Source of the DNA: Candidatus Thorarchaeota archaeon
Lineage (GTDB): Archaea; Asgardarchaeota; Thorarchaeia; Thorarchaeales; Thorarchaeaceae
Direction of reading: 5' to 3'
Length of the DNA: 15,146 bases
Assembly (NCBI GenBank): GCA_038893995.1
Contig: JAWAQK010000043.1
Span: 6,603-21,748, forward strand
In this document: positions 1,744 through 15,055 of the stretch, piece after piece
Numbering within the stretch: position 1 is the stretch's first letter
How the letters are laid out: each line of letters starts with the position of its first letter
Program-made: the position numbers and the translations under genes
Notes under the pieces: model-generated
What the model was told of the DNA's origin: nothing
Database searches by the model: none
Seen by the model: the letters and a program-made list of their open reading frames with translations, nothing else

Positions 1744-3387
1744 ATGAGTCAACAGATACCTGTCCTAGTGCTGAAAGAAGACACCGAGAGAACACGAGGT
1801 CGCGATGCCCAGAGGAACAACATCATGGCCGGCATGGTCATTGCAGAGGCGGTACGAAGCGCCCTGGGTCCGAAGGGCATGGACAAGATGCTAGTGGACT
1901 CGTTTGGTGACGTTACCGTGTCAAACGATGGTGCAACCATCCTCAAGGAGATGGACGTGGCGCATCCCGCTGCGAAGATGATCATAGAGGTCGCGAAGAC
2001 CGTCGATACCGAGGTGGGAGACGGCACCACGTCAGCTGCTGTACTTGCCGGAGAGCTCTTGAAGCGGGCTGAGGAACTGCTGGACCAGAAGATACATCCG
2101 ACCACGATAATATCAGGCTACAGAGCAGCGACTGACAAGGCCATCTCAATCCTTGATGAGATTGCTGAGAAGGTCGACCCTCAGAGCGCTGAGTACAAGA
2201 AGGTCCTCAAGGACGTTGCTAAGACCTCAATGTCGAGCAAGTTTGTGTCTGGTCACAAGGACAAGCTGGCTGATATCGTGGTGGACGCAGTCCTGTCCGT
2301 CGCCAAGGAAACGCCCCCAGGCGAGCGGATCGACCTTGACAACATCCCCCGCATCAAGCAGGAGGGACTGAATGTCGAGGACACCCAGCTCGTGAGAGGT
2401 ATTGTCCTTGACAAGGAGGTCGTCCACTCCGGCATGCCCAAGAGAGTTGAGAATGCCAAGATCGCCCTCTTGGAGTGTCCGCTCGAGATAACGAAGACTG
2501 AGTTCACTGCAAAGATCGCAATCACCGATCCGACATCGATGCAGAGCTTCATTGACGAAGAGGAGAGAATGCTCAAGAGCATGGTGGACACCATCGTCAA
2601 GGCAGGCGCAAACGTCGTGATTGCACAGAAGGGAATCGACGATGTCGCCCAGCACTATCTCGCCAAGCACGGCATCCTCGCCGTCCGGAGGATAAAGAAG
2701 TCCGATGTGGACAGACTTCACAAAACCACCGGTGCGACGATAGTCTCAAACATTCACAAGCTGACAGAGTCCGACCTGGGCACTGCCAAGCTCGTAGAGG
2801 AGCGCCAAGTCGGCGAGGACAAGATGGTCTTTGTGGAGGGTACTCCGAAGTCGTCCGTGATGACGATACTCGTGCGAGGTGGCACTGAGCACGTGGTCGA
2901 CGAGGTCGATCGCGCACTTAACGATGCTGTCAACGTCGTGAAGGACGTTGTCATGAAACCTGCAGTGCTGTACGGCGGCGGTGCCGTTGAGTGCGAGATT
3001 GCCGAGAGGATAAGGGCATACGCCAACACTCTCGAGGGACGAGAACAGTATGCTGTGAGGGCCTTTGCCGATGCAGTCGAATCACTGCCGATGGCAATCG
3101 CTGAGAACGCAGGTCTCGACCCGATTGACATCATGGTGTCATTGAGAGCGGCGCACAGCGAGGGTAACATCACCTATGGCATCGATCTCGAGAAGGGCAA
3201 GGTCGCAGACATGAAGAAGTTGAGGATTGTCGAACCAGTCCTCGTGAAGAGGCAGGTCGTTGCATCGGCATCCGAGGCATCACAGATGATCCTCAAGATT
3301 GACGATGTCATAAGCTCCAAGGCAAGCAAGACTCCAGGTGGAGAAGGCCCCCGCAAGGACGAGGGCGGTGACTCTGACGAGGACTGA
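1744..3387 (+). CDS. ths: Thermosome subunit (group II chaperonin)
   Basis: Motifs [45 protein letters not shown] and ILKIDD; 547 aa. Subunit type (alpha or beta) cannot be assigned by eye. Confidence 0.98.
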
Positions 3388-3415
3388 AGACTGATCTCAA
3401 CAAAGGGTGTGTTGA

Positions 3416-4114
3416 ATGGCAGACGAGTTCGACCAGCAGAACGACGATGACGGTACTGAGGAAGAGGAAGGGACTGAAGACATCGAAGAGAAGACTCCGC
3501 CCAGTCAGGACACGAAACTGACAACTATCTCAGGAGTAGGTCCGAAGACAGCAGAGAAGCTGAAGGCTGCAGGCTATGACACCATCAGGAAGGTGGCAGA
3601 GGCGGAGCCTGAGAGTCTGAGTCAGGCAGTCCCGGGACTCAGCATCGCCAAGGCCGAGTCCATCATCGAGGAGGCCGCCACACTGATCGAGATGACAGCG
3701 ACGCAGGTCGAACGAGCTGCGCCCACGCCCTCAAAGATCAGAAAGAAGAAGTCAGAGGAGGCTGAACCAGTCAGGATAGAGTTCCCAAAGGCCGAAGAGG
3801 GAGGACGCACCACTCAGGTGACGGGCCTTCTCTCAGGTGTAGAGAGGGAGAACAGAGAGAGGGGAGTCCCAATTGGTCCAAGGTGGCTCACGAAGTTCGA
3901 GAAGGCGAGAATCATTGGCGCCAGAGCCCTACAGATCTCAATGGGGGCACCCCCGCTCATTCCTCTCGAGAGCGCACCGAAGGAACTCTTCGCCCTTGCA
4001 GAGGCTGAGCTCAAGGCTGGAGTCCTGCCAATGACAGTGAGACGCACTCTGCCGACTGGCGAGTATGCCGACATACCTCTCTCAACGCTACTGAAGTATA
4101 CGAGGCTGGACTGA
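3416..4114 (+). CDS. rpoK: DNA-directed RNA polymerase subunit Rpo6 (K) with N-terminal acidic tail and helix-hairpin-helix domain
   Basis: The C-terminal ~80 aa (LTKFEKARIIGARALQISMGAP...ELKAGVLPMTVRRTLPTG) is the Rpo6/RPB6 signature. Residues 35-90 are HhH-like (ISGVGPKTAEKL...VPGLSIAKAESI). Confidence 0.93.
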   Translation: MADEFDQQNDDDGTEEEEGTEDIEEKTPPSQDTKLTTISGVGPKTAEKLKAAGYDTIRKVAEAEPESLSQAVPGLSIAKAESIIEEAATLIEMTATQVERAAPTPSKIRKKKSEEAEPVRIEFPKAEEGGRTTQVTGLLSGVERENRERGVPIGPRWLTKFEKARIIGARALQISMGAPPLIPLESAPKELFALAEAELKAGVLPMTVRRTLPTGEYADIPLSTLLKYTRLD

Positions 4115-4138
4115 GAGTCCAGCTTCTTACTCTTTCTT
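4103..4138 (+). terminator. Hairpin plus pyrimidine tract at the end of rpoK
   Basis: GCTGGACT (4105-4112) and AGTCCAGC (4116-4123) form a perfect 8-bp inverted repeat spanning the stop codon, followed by TTCTTACTCTTTCTT. Confidence 0.55.
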
Positions 4139-4187
4139 GACGATAGACCGAGAACAATCTCTTTAGGAAATCGATACCTGAGTGTAG

Positions 4188-5537
4188 GTGGTGGTCATTC
4201 TGCAGTCGCTGTTCCTCTCTCCAGACCTGGTGATCAGGAGTCTCGTTGGCTTTGCAGTTGGAGCACTGATTGGTCTAGAGAGACAGAAGCGAATGACTGA
4301 GGGCGAGGTCATCGGAGTCAGGTCATTCGGTCTGCACAGTCTTCTGGGGGCAGTATCGGCATACACGTATACACTCTCAGACTATCAGAACATCGTTGTG
4401 CTGCTCTACGCATCAGTAATATCGGCCGCGATTGTCGTAGTCCAGCTGGTCCACAAGGTCTTCTTCACTCCTAAGAAGGGAACGACCACGTCTATAGTCT
4501 TTGCCTTCTCCTTCGTATTGGGAGTCCTGGTGGGGCTGGATGCCCCGCCAAGCTCGCCTGACAGCTTCCCCATAGGCGGACTACAGATGCTGGCCATGGC
4601 AATGTCCGTACTCACATTTCTCGTGCTTGGGTTCAAGGAGGAGGTGGCCCATGCAGTCGCAGGGATATCTAAGGAGGAGATGATCAGCGCTGCAGAGCTT
4701 CTTGTACTGATACTCTTCTTCTGGCCCCTGATGCCTGAGTCGGTGAGATTCCTGGGACTGGAGTTCCCAGCCTTCCTAATGTACGAACTCATAGTGCTCC
4801 TGCTCGGAGTCAGCTTCCTGAACTACGTACTGGTCAAGAAGTACAGAGAGAGAGGACCACTGTTCTTCGGCATCTTCGGAGGACTAGCGAACAGTGAGGC
4901 AGCGGTCTCGAGCATATCTGAGTACTATGTAGAGACCGGCCGGTCAGACACAGAGACGATGTCAGTGGCATGTCTGTTGACAAACATATCAATGGTCGGT
5001 AGAAACGGACTGATCATCGCACTGCTCGACCCGTCACTGCAGGTACTGAGGTACTACCTCGTTCCAATGGCAATCATGTGCACAGTTGGTCTTGTCAGGG
5101 TCCTACAGGAACGAACAGGTACGCACAGTGTTGACCAGGAGGAACTCCACTCCAGGCTCAGCTCACCGTTCGAGTTCCACGCTGCCATCAAATTTGCCGC
5201 ACTGTTCATAGCGATATCGACCTTCTCCCTGTTGATGCAGGACCTGTTCCAAGATGCAGGAGTCATCATCGCAGCGATAGTGGGTGGTCTTGCATCAGCG
5301 GGGGCGGTCGTTGCATCCATGACCCTGCTATACGTTGCCCAGGGGGGAACCATCACAGTCTATGCGGCCGTGTATGCTGCAACGGTTGCGACCGTCATGT
5401 CAGTGATGAACAAGACCATCTACGTCTACATCCAGGACAGGGAGGGTGCACTCGCCAAGAATGTACTCAGAGACAGTCTGATCATGGTCGCCGGCGTATT
5501 GGCATATCTGGTGCTCGCTCCACTTGTCCAGCCCTAG
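4188..5537 (+). CDS. MgtC/SapB-family, DUF4010-domain polytopic membrane protein
   Basis: N-terminal GALIGLER...GVRSF MgtC motif, more than 10 hydrophobic segments, GGLANSEA (GGxxSS-type) and PFEF..AIKFA, all typical of archaeal DUF4010 proteins. Confidence 0.85.
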   Translation: MVVILQSLFLSPDLVIRSLVGFAVGALIGLERQKRMTEGEVIGVRSFGLHSLLGAVSAYTYTLSDYQNIVVLLYASVISAAIVVVQLVHKVFFTPKKGTTTSIVFAFSFVLGVLVGLDAPPSSPDSFPIGGLQMLAMAMSVLTFLVLGFKEEVAHAVAGISKEEMISAAELLVLILFFWPLMPESVRFLGLEFPAFLMYELIVLLLGVSFLNYVLVKKYRERGPLFFGIFGGLANSEAAVSSISEYYVETGRSDTETMSVACLLTNISMVGRNGLIIALLDPSLQVLRYYLVPMAIMCTVGLVRVLQERTGTHSVDQEELHSRLSSPFEFHAAIKFAALFIAISTFSLLMQDLFQDAGVIIAAIVGGLASAGAVVASMTLLYVAQGGTITVYAAVYAATVATVMSVMNKTIYVYIQDREGALAKNVLRDSLIMVAGVLAYLVLAPLVQP

Positions 5538-10275: not shown

Positions 10276-10367
10276 GACATGGAGAGTGCATAGGTCATCA
10301 CAGCAAAAGGGTTTTGGTACGACCGAATGAGAGGGGACCGGGCTCCTAGTACAACCGTCGTGGATAC

Positions 10368-10380
10368 GCTACCTTTAAAA
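10368..10380 (+). promoter_or_regulatory. Putative TATA box for the surface protein gene
   Basis: TTTAAAA at 10374-10380 lies inside the annotated N-terminal extension, which supports the later start ATG 10441. Confidence 0.5.
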
Positions 10381-10440
10381 CGCGCCAGATTCAGACCGCG
10401 TGAGAAGACGTGTCACAGTCTGTGTCAGGAAGGCCTGAAG

Positions 10441-12021
10441 ATGAGAAGACCCGATCTGCTCATGCTCTTGATCATTTCGCTCGTAGTGACGACACTGCTG
10501 ACAGTTCAGCCCACGACGTGTCCTACGACCGCTGATGATAGTAGCCCAGTTGCCACATCACCAAGCCACGTCTCGCGATTCGATTCCCCAAACATGACAA
10601 TCATACTGGTCTCTCCAGCAAATCAGAGCAAACTGGTGGGCGTCGCAAACATCACGTTGTTCATCTCGTCCGTGAATGGTCAAGTCAACCTGACGCTCTA
10701 TGTACAGAACCAGGTCTTTCCTGACTACAATCGTACACTGATCAGCCCTGGGTTTGTCAGCCTGTTTGTCAATACGACCATCTTGGCAGAGGGATACCTG
10801 AACTTCACCATCTTGCTCGAGGACATGAGATTCGTGCCGGTGGACCGAGAGAGCTACTACCTGAGGTTCCTTGTCGATAACCACGGCCCTCCCTCTGTCG
10901 AGCTCATATATCCAACCACCACGGACACGCTGACAGGTGTCGTGAATCTCACCATCAGGATAATATCCGACTACACTCACGTCTACATGAATATCACAGT
11001 CGCAGGTAGGATCACCCCTGAGTTCAACTCGACACTCGTCCCAGTCGGTCTCGGAAACTTCACACTCAACTGCAGTCGCTATGACAACGGAGTGAACATC
11101 TTGGGCATCAAGGTGTGGACCGAAGAGGGGCTATCAGCGTATGTCGAGCGGAGCGTGAACTTCCTGGACCACGTAAGATTGACGCCCCTGGGGTTGACCT
11201 ACTACTCGGTCATCAAGGGCAATCAGGAGATCAGACTGATAGTTGAGACTCCATATCCCAATGTGACCGTCAGTCTACTGGTGGACGGTGTGGTTGCCCC
11301 CGATGTGGACAGAGTGGTACTCTCTGCGGGCATCAGGAAGATATACCTGAACACGACACCCTATAGAGAAGGAGAACACAATATCACGTACGTGGGTAGC
11401 ACCCTCAACGGGCACAACTGGACCTACCGGACATGGTATGTGATTGATAACCACGGTCAGCCGAGGGTCTCATTTGTATTCCCCAGGTCGGATGTCGTAT
11501 ACGGCCTTGCAACATTCAGGATCAACATAGATAGCACATGGCAGTATGTCAATCTCACAGTGTACGTCGACAATGTACCCGTGGAGGGACTTGTGAACGT
11601 CACTGTTCCCACCGGCGAGTACAGCTTCTTCATTGACGTGGGGATGTACTCCAAGTGGGAACACACCCTGAAGGTCGTCGTCACCACAGAGGAAGGAGTG
11701 ACGGCAGAAGCCTCCCGAGTGTTCGGTTTTGCAAGTTTCAAGCCTGAGGACATGGTAAGCCTGCTTGTAGTGCTTGGTATTGCATTTGCTATTCCTGTCA
11801 TGCGCTGGAGAAAGGGACAACCAGTGCGAACAACGATCATCGTGGACATCGTGTTCATCTGCGTGACACTTGCCCTGTTTGTCGCAGTGGGAGTCACCTC
11901 TGTGGCGCTTGTGCTCTGGCATCTCAATATGGCCAGCATATGGTCAGTGGGGGCAGCACTCATTGCCACAAACTTGATACTCCCGCTCTTTGAGAGCACT
12001 CGGAAGGAGACCTCAGAGTAG
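10441..12021 (+). CDS. Secreted, C-terminally membrane-anchored surface glycoprotein with four Ig-like repeats (hypothetical)
   Basis: Signal peptide-like MRRPDLLMLLIISLVVTTLLTV, an S/T/P-rich linker, four beta-rich repeats of about 95 aa, 18 N-x-S/T sequons by my count, and three or more C-terminal hydrophobic helices. Confidence 0.8.
   Translation: MRRPDLLMLLIISLVVTTLLTVQPTTCPTTADDSSPVATSPSHVSRFDSPNMTIILVSPANQSKLVGVANITLFISSVNGQVNLTLYVQNQVFPDYNRTLISPGFVSLFVNTTILAEGYLNFTILLEDMRFVPVDRESYYLRFLVDNHGPPSVELIYPTTTDTLTGVVNLTIRIISDYTHVYMNITVAGRITPEFNSTLVPVGLGNFTLNCSRYDNGVNILGIKVWTEEGLSAYVERSVNFLDHVRLTPLGLTYYSVIKGNQEIRLIVETPYPNVTVSLLVDGVVAPDVDRVVLSAGIRKIYLNTTPYREGEHNITYVGSTLNGHNWTYRTWYVIDNHGQPRVSFVFPRSDVVYGLATFRINIDSTWQYVNLTVYVDNVPVEGLVNVTVPTGEYSFFIDVGMYSKWEHTLKVVVTTEEGVTAEASRVFGFASFKPEDMVSLLVVLGIAFAIPVMRWRKGQPVRTTIIVDIVFICVTLALFVAVGVTSVALVLWHLNMASIWSVGAALIATNLILPLFESTRKETSE
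10588..11736 (+). repeat. Internal protein repeats, four units of about 95 aa in an A-B-A-B arrangement
   Basis: DNHG recurs 190 aa apart (GATAACCACGG at 10876 and 11446) and TEEG recurs 189 aa apart. Confidence 0.75.
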
Positions 12022-12923: not shown

Positions 12924-13847
12924 CTACCGCTGTTCTAGACACTCAGCAATGTGCAAGGATGTCTCAACAAGCCCGACCGCAGACTCCCCGAGCAGATATA
13001 GCACTGGTTCAACTCCGATACCTCCTGGAATGTGAAGCCCGACCGTGATGCCAGGCGGGACCTCATCTCTTCGGTCTGCGACTTGCTCCGCAATGTCAGG
13101 CGCGGTCGCAGCTGGCTCTGGAAGTGTAAGTACGAGTACTCCAGACTCGACAGACCGCGACACTATCTCGTTGGAACCGCCGATGCACAGACAGGATCGC
13201 ACCCAGGGCCATCGTCGTCTGGCCCAGAGTAATAGCTCAGCCATGTGGGTCGAGGCTCCGAACTCAGGGGACATCAGTGCCCTCGGGTAGCCTGCGACCA
13301 CAGTGATCCTGCCTGGCACCCCAGCGACATCAGTGAGGGACGAGGCGTCAGAGGTACATGTGACCAGGTTGGCCCTGACCTGTGGGACGAGCCTAGAGAA
13401 GGCCCTACTGGCCTGCATGATGTCCAGCGCGGCCCTCATGTCGGAGAGCACACGTGTCCTGTCGGTCAGTGATCCCTCCTCTCCGCTCACAAGCCTGCCA
13501 CAGATATCACAGTCGGAGGATGCTATTGACGGGACCATCTGTCTGTGTAGCCCGCACGTGCTACCAGCCATCCTGAGCTTCATGCAGTGGCCACACAGCA
13601 TCCGTATGGCCTCCGCAGGAGCACCATTGATCAAGACCTCTGCAAGTCGTCTGCATAGGGACTCAGTATCGTGGTCCCGTGGTCCTGTAGGAGAGGCACT
13701 CAAGTACTTACTCACTGCCGCCTGCGTCACGTCCATTGCTCGGGCGATCTCGTTCTGAGACAGACCCGCTGCTCGCAATACTCTGGCAAGCTCTGTCCTG
13801 ACTGATGGTAATACAGTCTTCTGCACTACCTCGCACGGTGGGCGCAT
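12924..13847 (-). CDS. thiR: ThiR thiamine-responsive transcriptional regulator (HTH + Cys cluster + ThiN-like domain)
   Basis: MRPPCE..., HTH LSQNEIARAMDVTQAAVSKYL, CxxC/CxxH/CxxC, and ThiN motifs VPQVRANL, VAGVPGRI, PEFGASTH and G.EP..YLLG. It is divergent from a thiamine ABC transporter. Confidence 0.88.
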   Translation of the reverse strand: MRPPCEVVQKTVLPSVRTELARVLRAAGLSQNEIARAMDVTQAAVSKYLSASPTGPRDHDTESLCRRLAEVLINGAPAEAIRMLCGHCMKLRMAGSTCGLHRQMVPSIASSDCDICGRLVSGEEGSLTDRTRVLSDMRAALDIMQASRAFSRLVPQVRANLVTCTSDASSLTDVAGVPGRITVVAGYPRALMSPEFGASTHMAELLLWARRRWPWVRSCLCIGGSNEIVSRSVESGVLVLTLPEPAATAPDIAEQVADRRDEVPPGITVGLHIPGGIGVEPVLYLLGESAVGLVETSLHIAECLEQR

Positions 13848-13910: not shown

Positions 13911-13954
13911 AATCAATGGGTGAGCTGGACTTGAACGGAGAGCAATACAGGGTG

Positions 13955-15055
13955 ATGAGAAGCCCACGAGGAAAGATCCTCGTGATCGGACTGGTGGCCA
14001 TCATAGCGGTCGCATCGATCGCGGTCCTCACCGCCCCAAGGCCCAAGATCATCGTCTATACATACGACAGCTTCATGGTGTGGGGTGATGACCCCGAGTC
14101 CATCGACGATATCATCCTCGGGCCCTTCGAGAGGGCATATGGTGTGGATGTCGAGATAGTACGGCTTCAGACCGATGCCACAGGGATAGTCGCAAGACTT
14201 GTCGCGGAGGCCCAGAGGCCCATTGCGGATGTGGTCATCGGGATCGACAACATACTGATACTGCGAGAGCAGACAAGAGCTGTACTTGAGCCATATACTC
14301 CAGACAACCTGTCAGTGATAGACCCTGAACTGATCTCAATGCTAGACAGCGAGCACTACCTGCTCCCCTTCGACTATGGAGTCGTGTGCCTTGTCTACCC
14401 GGCGAATGTGATCAATGAAACTACCCACCCACAGCTGACATCGCTGAATTTTGACCATCTGGCAACAGTCGAGTTTGCCTCAATGCTGGTCACTGAGAAC
14501 CCACACTTCAGCAGTCCAGGGCTCTCATTCCTGCTGAGCGAGATAGCCTACTATGAGAAGCTCAACAATGCCAACTGGACAGACTGGTGGGCCAGCGTCA
14601 GGGGACACATCAATGTCCAGGAGGGATGGAGCCAGGCCTGGACCGTGTGGTACGAGGACCCCACAAGGCACCTACTAGTGAGCTACGGCACGGACCCCGC
14701 ATACTCAGCATACTATGCAGGTGGCGTACCTGACATCAGGGCGGTGGGCATCACTCACAATGGGACCGTCTACGGTTGGCTGCAGGTCGAGGGAATAGGT
14801 CTCGTCAAGGGTGGCCCTCATCCAGAGCTCGGAAGAGCACTCATAGACTACTTCCTGAGCGCGGAAGTACAACGGCACATACCACTCAACCAGTGGATGT
14901 TTCCGGCCAACAGGTATGCACCACTGCCTGCCGTGTTTGACTACGCGCTCCAGCCGGGCGATGTGACGCCATTCAACACCCTCTTTACACCCACCGAGAT
15001 TGCCACAAACCTGGCGAGTTGGCTGGATGAGTGGGACGCCATAATGCTGACATAG
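13955..15055 (+). CDS. thiB: Thiamine ABC transporter substrate-binding protein
   Basis: Motifs VYTYDSF, ADVVIGIDN, PFDYG, SSPGLSFL, GWSQAW, SYGTDPAY, QVEG and QWMFPAN, with an N-terminal TM anchor and no lipobox Cys. The ORF opens at 13916, but the TATA position favours a start at 13952 or 13955. Confidence 0.93.
   Translation: MRSPRGKILVIGLVAIIAVASIAVLTAPRPKIIVYTYDSFMVWGDDPESIDDIILGPFERAYGVDVEIVRLQTDATGIVARLVAEAQRPIADVVIGIDNILILREQTRAVLEPYTPDNLSVIDPELISMLDSEHYLLPFDYGVVCLVYPANVINETTHPQLTSLNFDHLATVEFASMLVTENPHFSSPGLSFLLSEIAYYEKLNNANWTDWWASVRGHINVQEGWSQAWTVWYEDPTRHLLVSYGTDPAYSAYYAGGVPDIRAVGITHNGTVYGWLQVEGIGLVKGGPHPELGRALIDYFLSAEVQRHIPLNQWMFPANRYAPLPAVFDYALQPGDVTPFNTLFTPTEIATNLASWLDEWDAIMLT

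Follow-up and report, generated by a model that had tools for sequence, protein, structure and literature searches.

The closest described relative of the protein reported here is the Thorarchaeota Rpo6 discussed by Shematorova and Shpakovski (Int J Mol Sci 2026;27:4679; PMC13257274), which is of the same protein type as ours and whose long extension at the N-terminus includes a helical fragment. The extension is covered there in two sentences, from one modelled sequence, with a citation to a paper on the helix-hairpin-helix (HhH) fold. Our literature search, which had few subscription journals within reach, returned only this paper on the thorarchaeal extension and nothing on a C-terminal fusion. 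The initial annotation of this DNA, made by a model from the sequence alone, had stated that the fusion was not known to be characterised; those two sentences correct it as regards the extension, and the statement stands for the C-terminal fusion and for fixation. We did not find described the family-wide fixation of the module under core-like selection, its contrast with the variable copies on eL32 and Topo VI-A, or the independent C-terminal fusion and repeat tail of Kariarchaeaceae. A related engineered system also exists: when Topo V (HhH)2 repeats are placed on DNA polymerases, DNA binding improves with as few as one or two modules (PMC8313265).

The subunits of archaeal RNA polymerase otherwise vary very little, and here a folded domain predicted to bind nucleic acid is fixed, throughout an Asgard family, on the homologue of omega and RPB6.

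Structure of the rpo6 locus

The window is a stretch of 15,146 nucleotides from a Candidatus Thorarchaeota archaeon (assembly GCA_038893995.1, contig JAWAQK010000043.1, positions 6,603 to 21,748). Its rpo6 reading frame is single and uninterrupted, without a stop or frameshift. The features of the locus are:

1744..3387 (+): thermosome subunit gene, 28 nt upstream of rpo6
3405..3409 (+): Shine-Dalgarno-like GGGTG, 6 nt upstream of the N-terminal ATG
3416..4114 (+): rpo6 (rpoK) gene, 232 aa, from the ORF list and Pfam/NCBIfam profile matches; sole copy in the genome
3416..3514 (+): N-terminal tail, aa 1-33, predicted disordered; net charge -14 in this protein
3515..3685 (+): (HhH)2 domain, aa 34-90; the final helix extends to aa 101
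3734..3751 (+): basic patch, aa 107-112 (KIRKKK), an almost invariant K/R run
3752..3874 (+): Pro/acidic linker and conserved pre-core segment, aa 113-153
3875..4111 (+): Rpo6 core, from Pfam, NCBIfam and structure matches
4102..4136 (+): hairpin and T-rich run at the rpo6 stop codon, a weak candidate terminator (1 found against 0.6 expected by chance)

The initial annotation had placed the module at 3518-3685, which correctly corresponds to residues 35-90, although the amino acid string that it quoted ends at residue 87. Downstream of rpo6 lies a gene for an MgtC/DUF4010 membrane protein, and the thermosome-rpo6 order is common to most of the Asgard loci checked, with or without the HhH. Elsewhere in the window we observed a protein of 564 aa, predicted to be secreted or on the cell surface, which has repeating beta-rich units, C-terminal membrane helices and no Pfam match (10327-12021, +), and an HTH-ThiN (ThiR-type) regulator (12924-13847, -) divergent from a thiamine ABC transporter binding-protein-like gene (13916-15055, +).

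The protein is a genuine member of the Rpo6/RpoK/RPB6 family, with scores above the curated cut-offs for NCBIfam RpoK NF002207 (residues 146-231, 95.5 bits against 71), NF002208 (71.2 against 57) and Pfam RNA_pol_Rpb6 (PF01192; aa 157-204, 28 bits against 26). The two-helix and beta-finger fold of Rpo6/RPB6 is present, the core superposes on human RPB6 (Z 11.2, rmsd 1.5, 78 residues aligned) and its top Foldseek matches were all Rpo6/RPB6. Pairwise identity of the core is 75% within the family, and to judge from sequence it should assemble into RNA polymerase like any Rpo6/RPB6. The source genome (91% complete) gave one Rpo6 match, with no second short copy, and nearly all family genomes gave a single match each.

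In the AlphaFold2 prediction the HhH region (34-101) has a pLDDT of about 85 and the core exceeds 90, while aa 1-31 and 99-110 fall below 50 and the whole-chain pTM is 0.42. The protein is thus modelled as two confident domains with a low-confidence joining segment, in agreement with the flexibly tethered arm that had been proposed from the sequence.

Authenticity and translation of the fusion

The window DNA was found in hot-spring metagenomes. One Logan contig, which may come from the source sample itself, covers 3000-4352 without any difference, and a second metagenome sample covers 3094-3785, from the end of the thermosome gene to the basic patch, with no joints or indels. The order of N-terminal HhH followed by core is present in 120 database proteins, with homologues labelled Candidatus Thorarchaeota. 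An assembly artefact or chance joining was ruled out by the same architecture in relatives, database proteins and read-derived contigs, and the claim of a real HhH-Rpo6 fusion in one 232-aa ORF was borne out.

The annotation had also considered that translation from an internal codon, giving only the core, would undo its reading. We found a GGTG-type motif ahead of the N-terminal start in 23/24 family loci; a strict ribosome-binding motif occurred at an internal ATG/GTG in only two of the 24, and four of them have no internal ATG/GTG at all between HhH and core. An internal start yielding the core alone was rejected as the general case, and the sequence evidence shows that thorarchaeal Rpo6 is translated from its N-terminal start. 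Two short (82-84 aa) Thorarchaeota-like database entries were set aside as gene-calling artefacts, the HhH being included in their open frames. It should also be noted that contig LIZT01000039.1 (GCA_001304335.1; L217), labelled candidate division TA06 bacterium, has the thorarchaeal ARMT1-thermosome-rpo6-MgtC order with its Rpo6 called short; this contig is probably mis-binned.

Fold and conserved residues of the HhH domain

The arm belongs to the HHH_5 family and is not an alpha-CTD. Pfam HHH_5 (PF14520) matched aa 34-88 (E 8.6e-16, 58.6 bits against a cut-off of 27), and the AlphaFold2 model has helices at 35-37, 43-51, 57-62, 65-71 and 77-101, with two HhH motifs joined by a connector helix. 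The HhH part superposes on the RadA N-domain (Z 11.0, rmsd 2.6, 63 residues), and its best matches among solved structures are the DNA-binding (HhH)2 domains of Topo V and RadA. The whole domain matched RAD51 at E 6.5e-5 and 1e-11 in two comparisons, and the NusA AR2 profile at E 4e-10. The annotation had offered to give up its assignment if aa 35-90 lacked an HhH profile or structure match; instead, these matches confirm the likeness to the RadA/Rad51 N-domain and L32e type, extend it to Topo V and uphold the resemblance to NusA acidic repeats.

Hairpin motif 1 is the canonical G40-V-G42, and motif 2 is G74-L-S76, a variant that occurs in RAD51. Across 81 homologues G42, K/R44, K48, G74, S76 and K79 are invariant, and the surface outside these residues and the basic patch varies. 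G74, S76 and K79 align with human RAD51 G65, S67 and K70, weakly by this alignment alone (E 0.58). RAD51 K64 and K70 contact nucleosomal DNA (PMC10990931); the K64 equivalent is absent, position 73 being P/A/S/T and not basic. The HhH domain is net acidic in the 81 sequences (median -3, range -10 to +2) and the basic region aa 102-113 has a net charge of +5 to +8 in the family. The spacing from HhH to core is 58-63 aa in the 81 homologues, with P118 and G150 invariant and L138-G141 near-invariant in the linker segment. Only Met1 is invariant in the N-terminal tail, whose net charge ranges from -22 to +5 and flips from genus to genus.

Distribution and selection

Rpo6 was matched in 79 of the 85 other genomes of the same family, Thorarchaeaceae. 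In 77 of these 79 the match ran over HhH, linker and core and in the other two it ended at a contig end, so the fusion is kept in close relatives, whose lack of it had been named as a possible sign of an artefact. Apparent losses of the HhH (G015, G387, G390 and the second copy in G343) were dismissed as short matches at contig ends. The HhH was present in each of the 119 full-length database homologues inspected, as a tandem duplication in one, and among the best 150 matches in a library of 1.8 billion proteins those with HhH and core were of two types only, N-terminal (thorarchaeal) and C-terminal. Outside the family, the N-terminal HhH was absent from all listed matches of a phylum-wide protein search that was blind to reversed-order (core then HhH) fusions. 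In the sister family, represented by one genome, Rpo6 is 153 aa long and has just an acidic tail; with this one genome and a node without support, a gain once the two families had diverged looks the same as a loss within the sister family.

Nine independent pairs, when pooled, gave dN/dS values of 0.062 (HhH), 0.070 (core), 0.129 (linker) and 0.193 (tail), all of them rough because synonymous sites are partly saturated. By this sequence measure, the HhH is under purifying selection as strong as the core.

The same module on other proteins

In the source genome, modules of this kind also occur on RadA, on an MFS-like membrane protein and, in two copies, on Topo VI-A; the module is further found on a HEAT protein. 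Topo VI-A has it in 25/25 family loci, with 2-7 N-terminal copies where complete, and in 0/5 loci outside the family. Ribosomal protein eL32 has 1-4 N-terminal copies in 24 of 30 loci (L049-L078; overall range 0-4), and none in the source genome or genus g5. Because Topo VI-A and eL32 carry variable numbers of copies, we infer that a mobile (HhH)2 repeat circulates in the family and is appended to information-processing machines. On Rpo6 alone is the copy number fixed at one.

Thorarchaeal Rpo6 HhHs formed one group in a 62-column HhH tree (75/94, and 99/99 after thinning), and those of Kariarchaeaceae Rpo6 grouped with HhHs of Kariarchaeaceae ribosomal proteins (87/84). No donor of the Rpo6 module was identifiable in this tree.

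Several further details were observed at these loci. Topo VI-A is at L031:4356-6542 (-) in the source genome and at L083-L107 in the family; there is also a shorter second paralogue of Topo VI-A/Spo11 type, and the sister-family Topo VI-A match sits in a 1127-aa frame. The source-genome eL32 (L070:1036-1887) has a long Lys/Thr/Glu-rich tail which is not an HhH. The MFS-like protein with C-terminal (HhH)2 (L032:1529-3223, -) has a counterpart of the same kind in the sister family (L036:3333-4991, -). Family f14 (L116, L117, L113) has N-terminal (HhH)2 on long proteins with L35Ae-like ends, the Pfam match being weak for L116.

Independent fusion in Kariarchaeaceae and other Rpo6 variants

In Candidatus Kariarchaeota FT_008 (G085, L042:652-1224, +) the Rpo6 core is followed by a C-terminal (HhH)2. 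This reversed fusion was found through Rpo6 frame lengths in a 400-genome Asgard survey, among the matches listed, and further Rpo6 fusions may exist in that survey. Six 90%-clusters (P0121-P0126) share the C-terminal (HhH)2 on Rpo6, four of them with two modules, and this module matched Pfam RNA_pol_A_CTD at E 1.3e-7. The HhH-tailed cores fall inside a Kariarchaeaceae-type clade (100/99) among HhH-free relatives, and a core tree uniting both fusion types was rejected (AU p 6.2e-6); the AU test on the HhH domains alone did not reject a common origin (p 0.22). On the grounds of the core tree and the opposite termini, we conclude from these sequences that a Kariarchaeaceae subclade gained its Rpo6 HhH independently of Thorarchaeota. 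Close relatives, including entries labelled Kariarchaeum pelagium, have a KKPAKKAA repeat tail in place of the HhH (variable in length in L219:4001-4462 (+), P0127 and P0129), and the repeat-tailed and HhH-tailed forms share one locus, adjoining an RNB-domain gene. We take the Lys/Ala/Pro composition of this tail to be histone-H1-like and DNA-binding. Because the N-terminal stabilising loop of Rpo6 contacts the C-terminal beta-finger (PMC13257274), both termini probably emerge close together on the polymerase.

Other unusual subunits were also seen. In family f27 a LarA-type lactate racemase domain is fused in frame to Rpo6, in frames of 557 and 584 aa (L039:1518-3188, +, in G314 and L040:2124-3875, -, in G313); in G311 the frame upstream looks disrupted or of another kind. 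In G088, family f14 (L215:1084-2694, +), the Rpo6 core lies in the middle of a 536-aa frame with a C-terminal region ending in a Cys cluster, and Pfam matched nothing in this frame beyond the core. The source-genome Rpo5 (L143:1869-2426, +; 186 aa) is of a long two-domain form, with an Mrr-like N-domain and Rpb5_C, which is tandemly duplicated in 7 of the 18 family genomes searched.

Possible roles of the arm

On sequence conservation and analogy, the reading we favour, with a probability of roughly 55%, is that the arm is a tethered grip on nucleic acid without sequence specificity, which would work like Rpo13 of Sulfolobus and not as an alpha-CTD homologue. Rpo6 would be a true polymerase subunit with a permanently attached arm, in which the hairpin residues (G40-V-G42-P-K44, K48, G74-L-S76 and K79) and the K/R patch would hold the nucleic-acid backbone whatever its sequence. 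The template would most likely be double-stranded DNA, possibly histone-wrapped, and nascent RNA might also be held. By raising locally the affinity with which the polymerase binds its template, the tether would stabilise promoter or elongation complexes, as Rpo13 does in Sulfolobales and Topo V (HhH)2 repeats do on the DNA polymerases to which they are fused. The module itself may have been recruited from the (HhH)2 repeat pool which was also appended to Topo VI-A and eL32. Consistent with a grip are the invariance of the hairpin residues and basic patch while the remaining surface varies, the convergent HhH and Lys/Ala/Pro tails on Kariarchaeaceae Rpo6, the DNA-binding nature of the best structure matches, and a fixed single copy under selection like that on the core. 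Against it, the domain is net acidic, lacks an equivalent of RAD51 K64 and has G-L-S and not G-h-G in its second hairpin; (HhH)2 domains such as NusA AR2 bind proteins; the module also occurs on MFS-like and HEAT proteins, where a nucleic-acid role is not obvious; and most Asgard archaea, the sister family included, manage without the arm. A bolder version, which we consider improbable, holds that generic nucleic-acid arms were bolted onto Asgard Rpo6 repeatedly, each time independently, and that the thorarchaeal one grips histone-wrapped DNA through the lysine equivalent to RAD51 K70. Rpo6 would then be a built-in chromatin-engagement site of the polymerase, foreshadowing the functional tail of eukaryotic RPB6.

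That the arm docks onto proteins instead, its HhH and charged tail recruiting a factor or clamping a neighbour (Rpo5, the C-terminal part of Rpo1, TFE, Spt5 or a repair enzyme), seems to us unlikely. The RPB6 tail does recruit TFIIH p62 (PMC8754651), an AlphaFold3 model has extra Rpo6-Rpo5 and Rpo6-RID contacts (PMC13257274), the HhH is acidic and AR2-like, and the fixed 58-63 aa linker implies that geometry matters; yet the invariant residues are the nucleic-acid-contact hairpins and not a separate patch, the tail charge flips between genera, and a partner-specific module would not easily be swapped for a low-complexity Lys/Ala/Pro tail, as in Kariarchaeum. A complex prediction with the arm (aa 30-113), the Rpo1 C-terminal subunit, Rpo5 and the Rpo6 core scored 0.00, which argues neither way. 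Rpo6 sits near the stalk and the RNA exit side of the polymerase, and the module is found on thorarchaeal eL32 and Kariarchaeaceae L35Ae-like proteins, so that binding of nascent RNA or a trailing ribosome (in transcription-translation coupling, termination or co-transcriptional rRNA folding) may be imagined; we hold it to be quite improbable, since the source genome keeps the HhH on Rpo6 with none on eL32 and the closest solved relatives are DNA binders. We give equally little credence to a near-neutral passenger, a mobile (HhH)2 which landed on a fusion-tolerant terminus and was kept merely folded, without taking part in transcription: the module turns up on various proteins of the family and Asgard Rpo6 accepts unrelated fusion partners (LarA-Rpo6 in f27, the 536-aa frame in G088), but there are no losses in 79 genomes of 14 genera, dN/dS is like that of the core, the surface lysines and basic patch are invariant and linker length is constrained. 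Very unlikely indeed is a true analogue of the alpha-CTD, with specific recognition of activators or of a sequence element upstream of the promoter core. The fold class is shared and the Kariarchaeaceae module does match RNA_pol_A_CTD, but archaeal promoters are read by TBP/TFB, the carrier is the omega homologue and not an alpha (Rpo3/Rpo11-type) subunit, and PF03118 had no match in the window protein up to E 0.1; the alpha-CTD analogy suggested at the outset is accordingly doubtful.

That Kariarchaeaceae, a Heimdallarchaeia lineage, acquired such an arm independently suggests that accessory arms are preferentially anchored on Rpo6 in the archaea related to eukaryotes. At 84 residues the thorarchaeal arm is a small testable unit and a natural counterpart of engineered HhH-polymerase chimeras.

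Comparison with known systems

With Rpo6, RPB6 and omega the window protein shares core sequence, fold and single copy, and the thermosome-rpo6 order is an Asgard feature. The N-terminus of RPB6 is a disordered acidic tail only, whereas the window protein adds a folded (HhH)2 and a basic patch. The eukaryotic tail is also conserved and acidic with an aromatic anchor, a pattern to which the thorarchaeal tail does not conform, being acidic in the window protein but variable in charge across the family. Hairpin residues are shared with the RadA/RAD51 N-domain, the Methanopyrus Topo V repeats and the N-extension of haloarchaeal eL32; the window module differs from these (HhH)2 appendages in being a single copy on an RNA polymerase subunit, and thorarchaeal modules are one residue longer than RadA ahead of the second hairpin. 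The bacterial alpha-CTD and NusA AR2 are likewise HhH folds on a flexible tether at RNA polymerase, with a different carrier subunit. Rpo13 of Sulfolobales resembles the arm as a lineage-restricted polymerase add-on with a basic region and a proposed non-specific grip on double-stranded DNA (PMC3479171); it differs in being a separate subunit with no HhH and no homology to the arm, and its function has been shown experimentally (PMC3479171).
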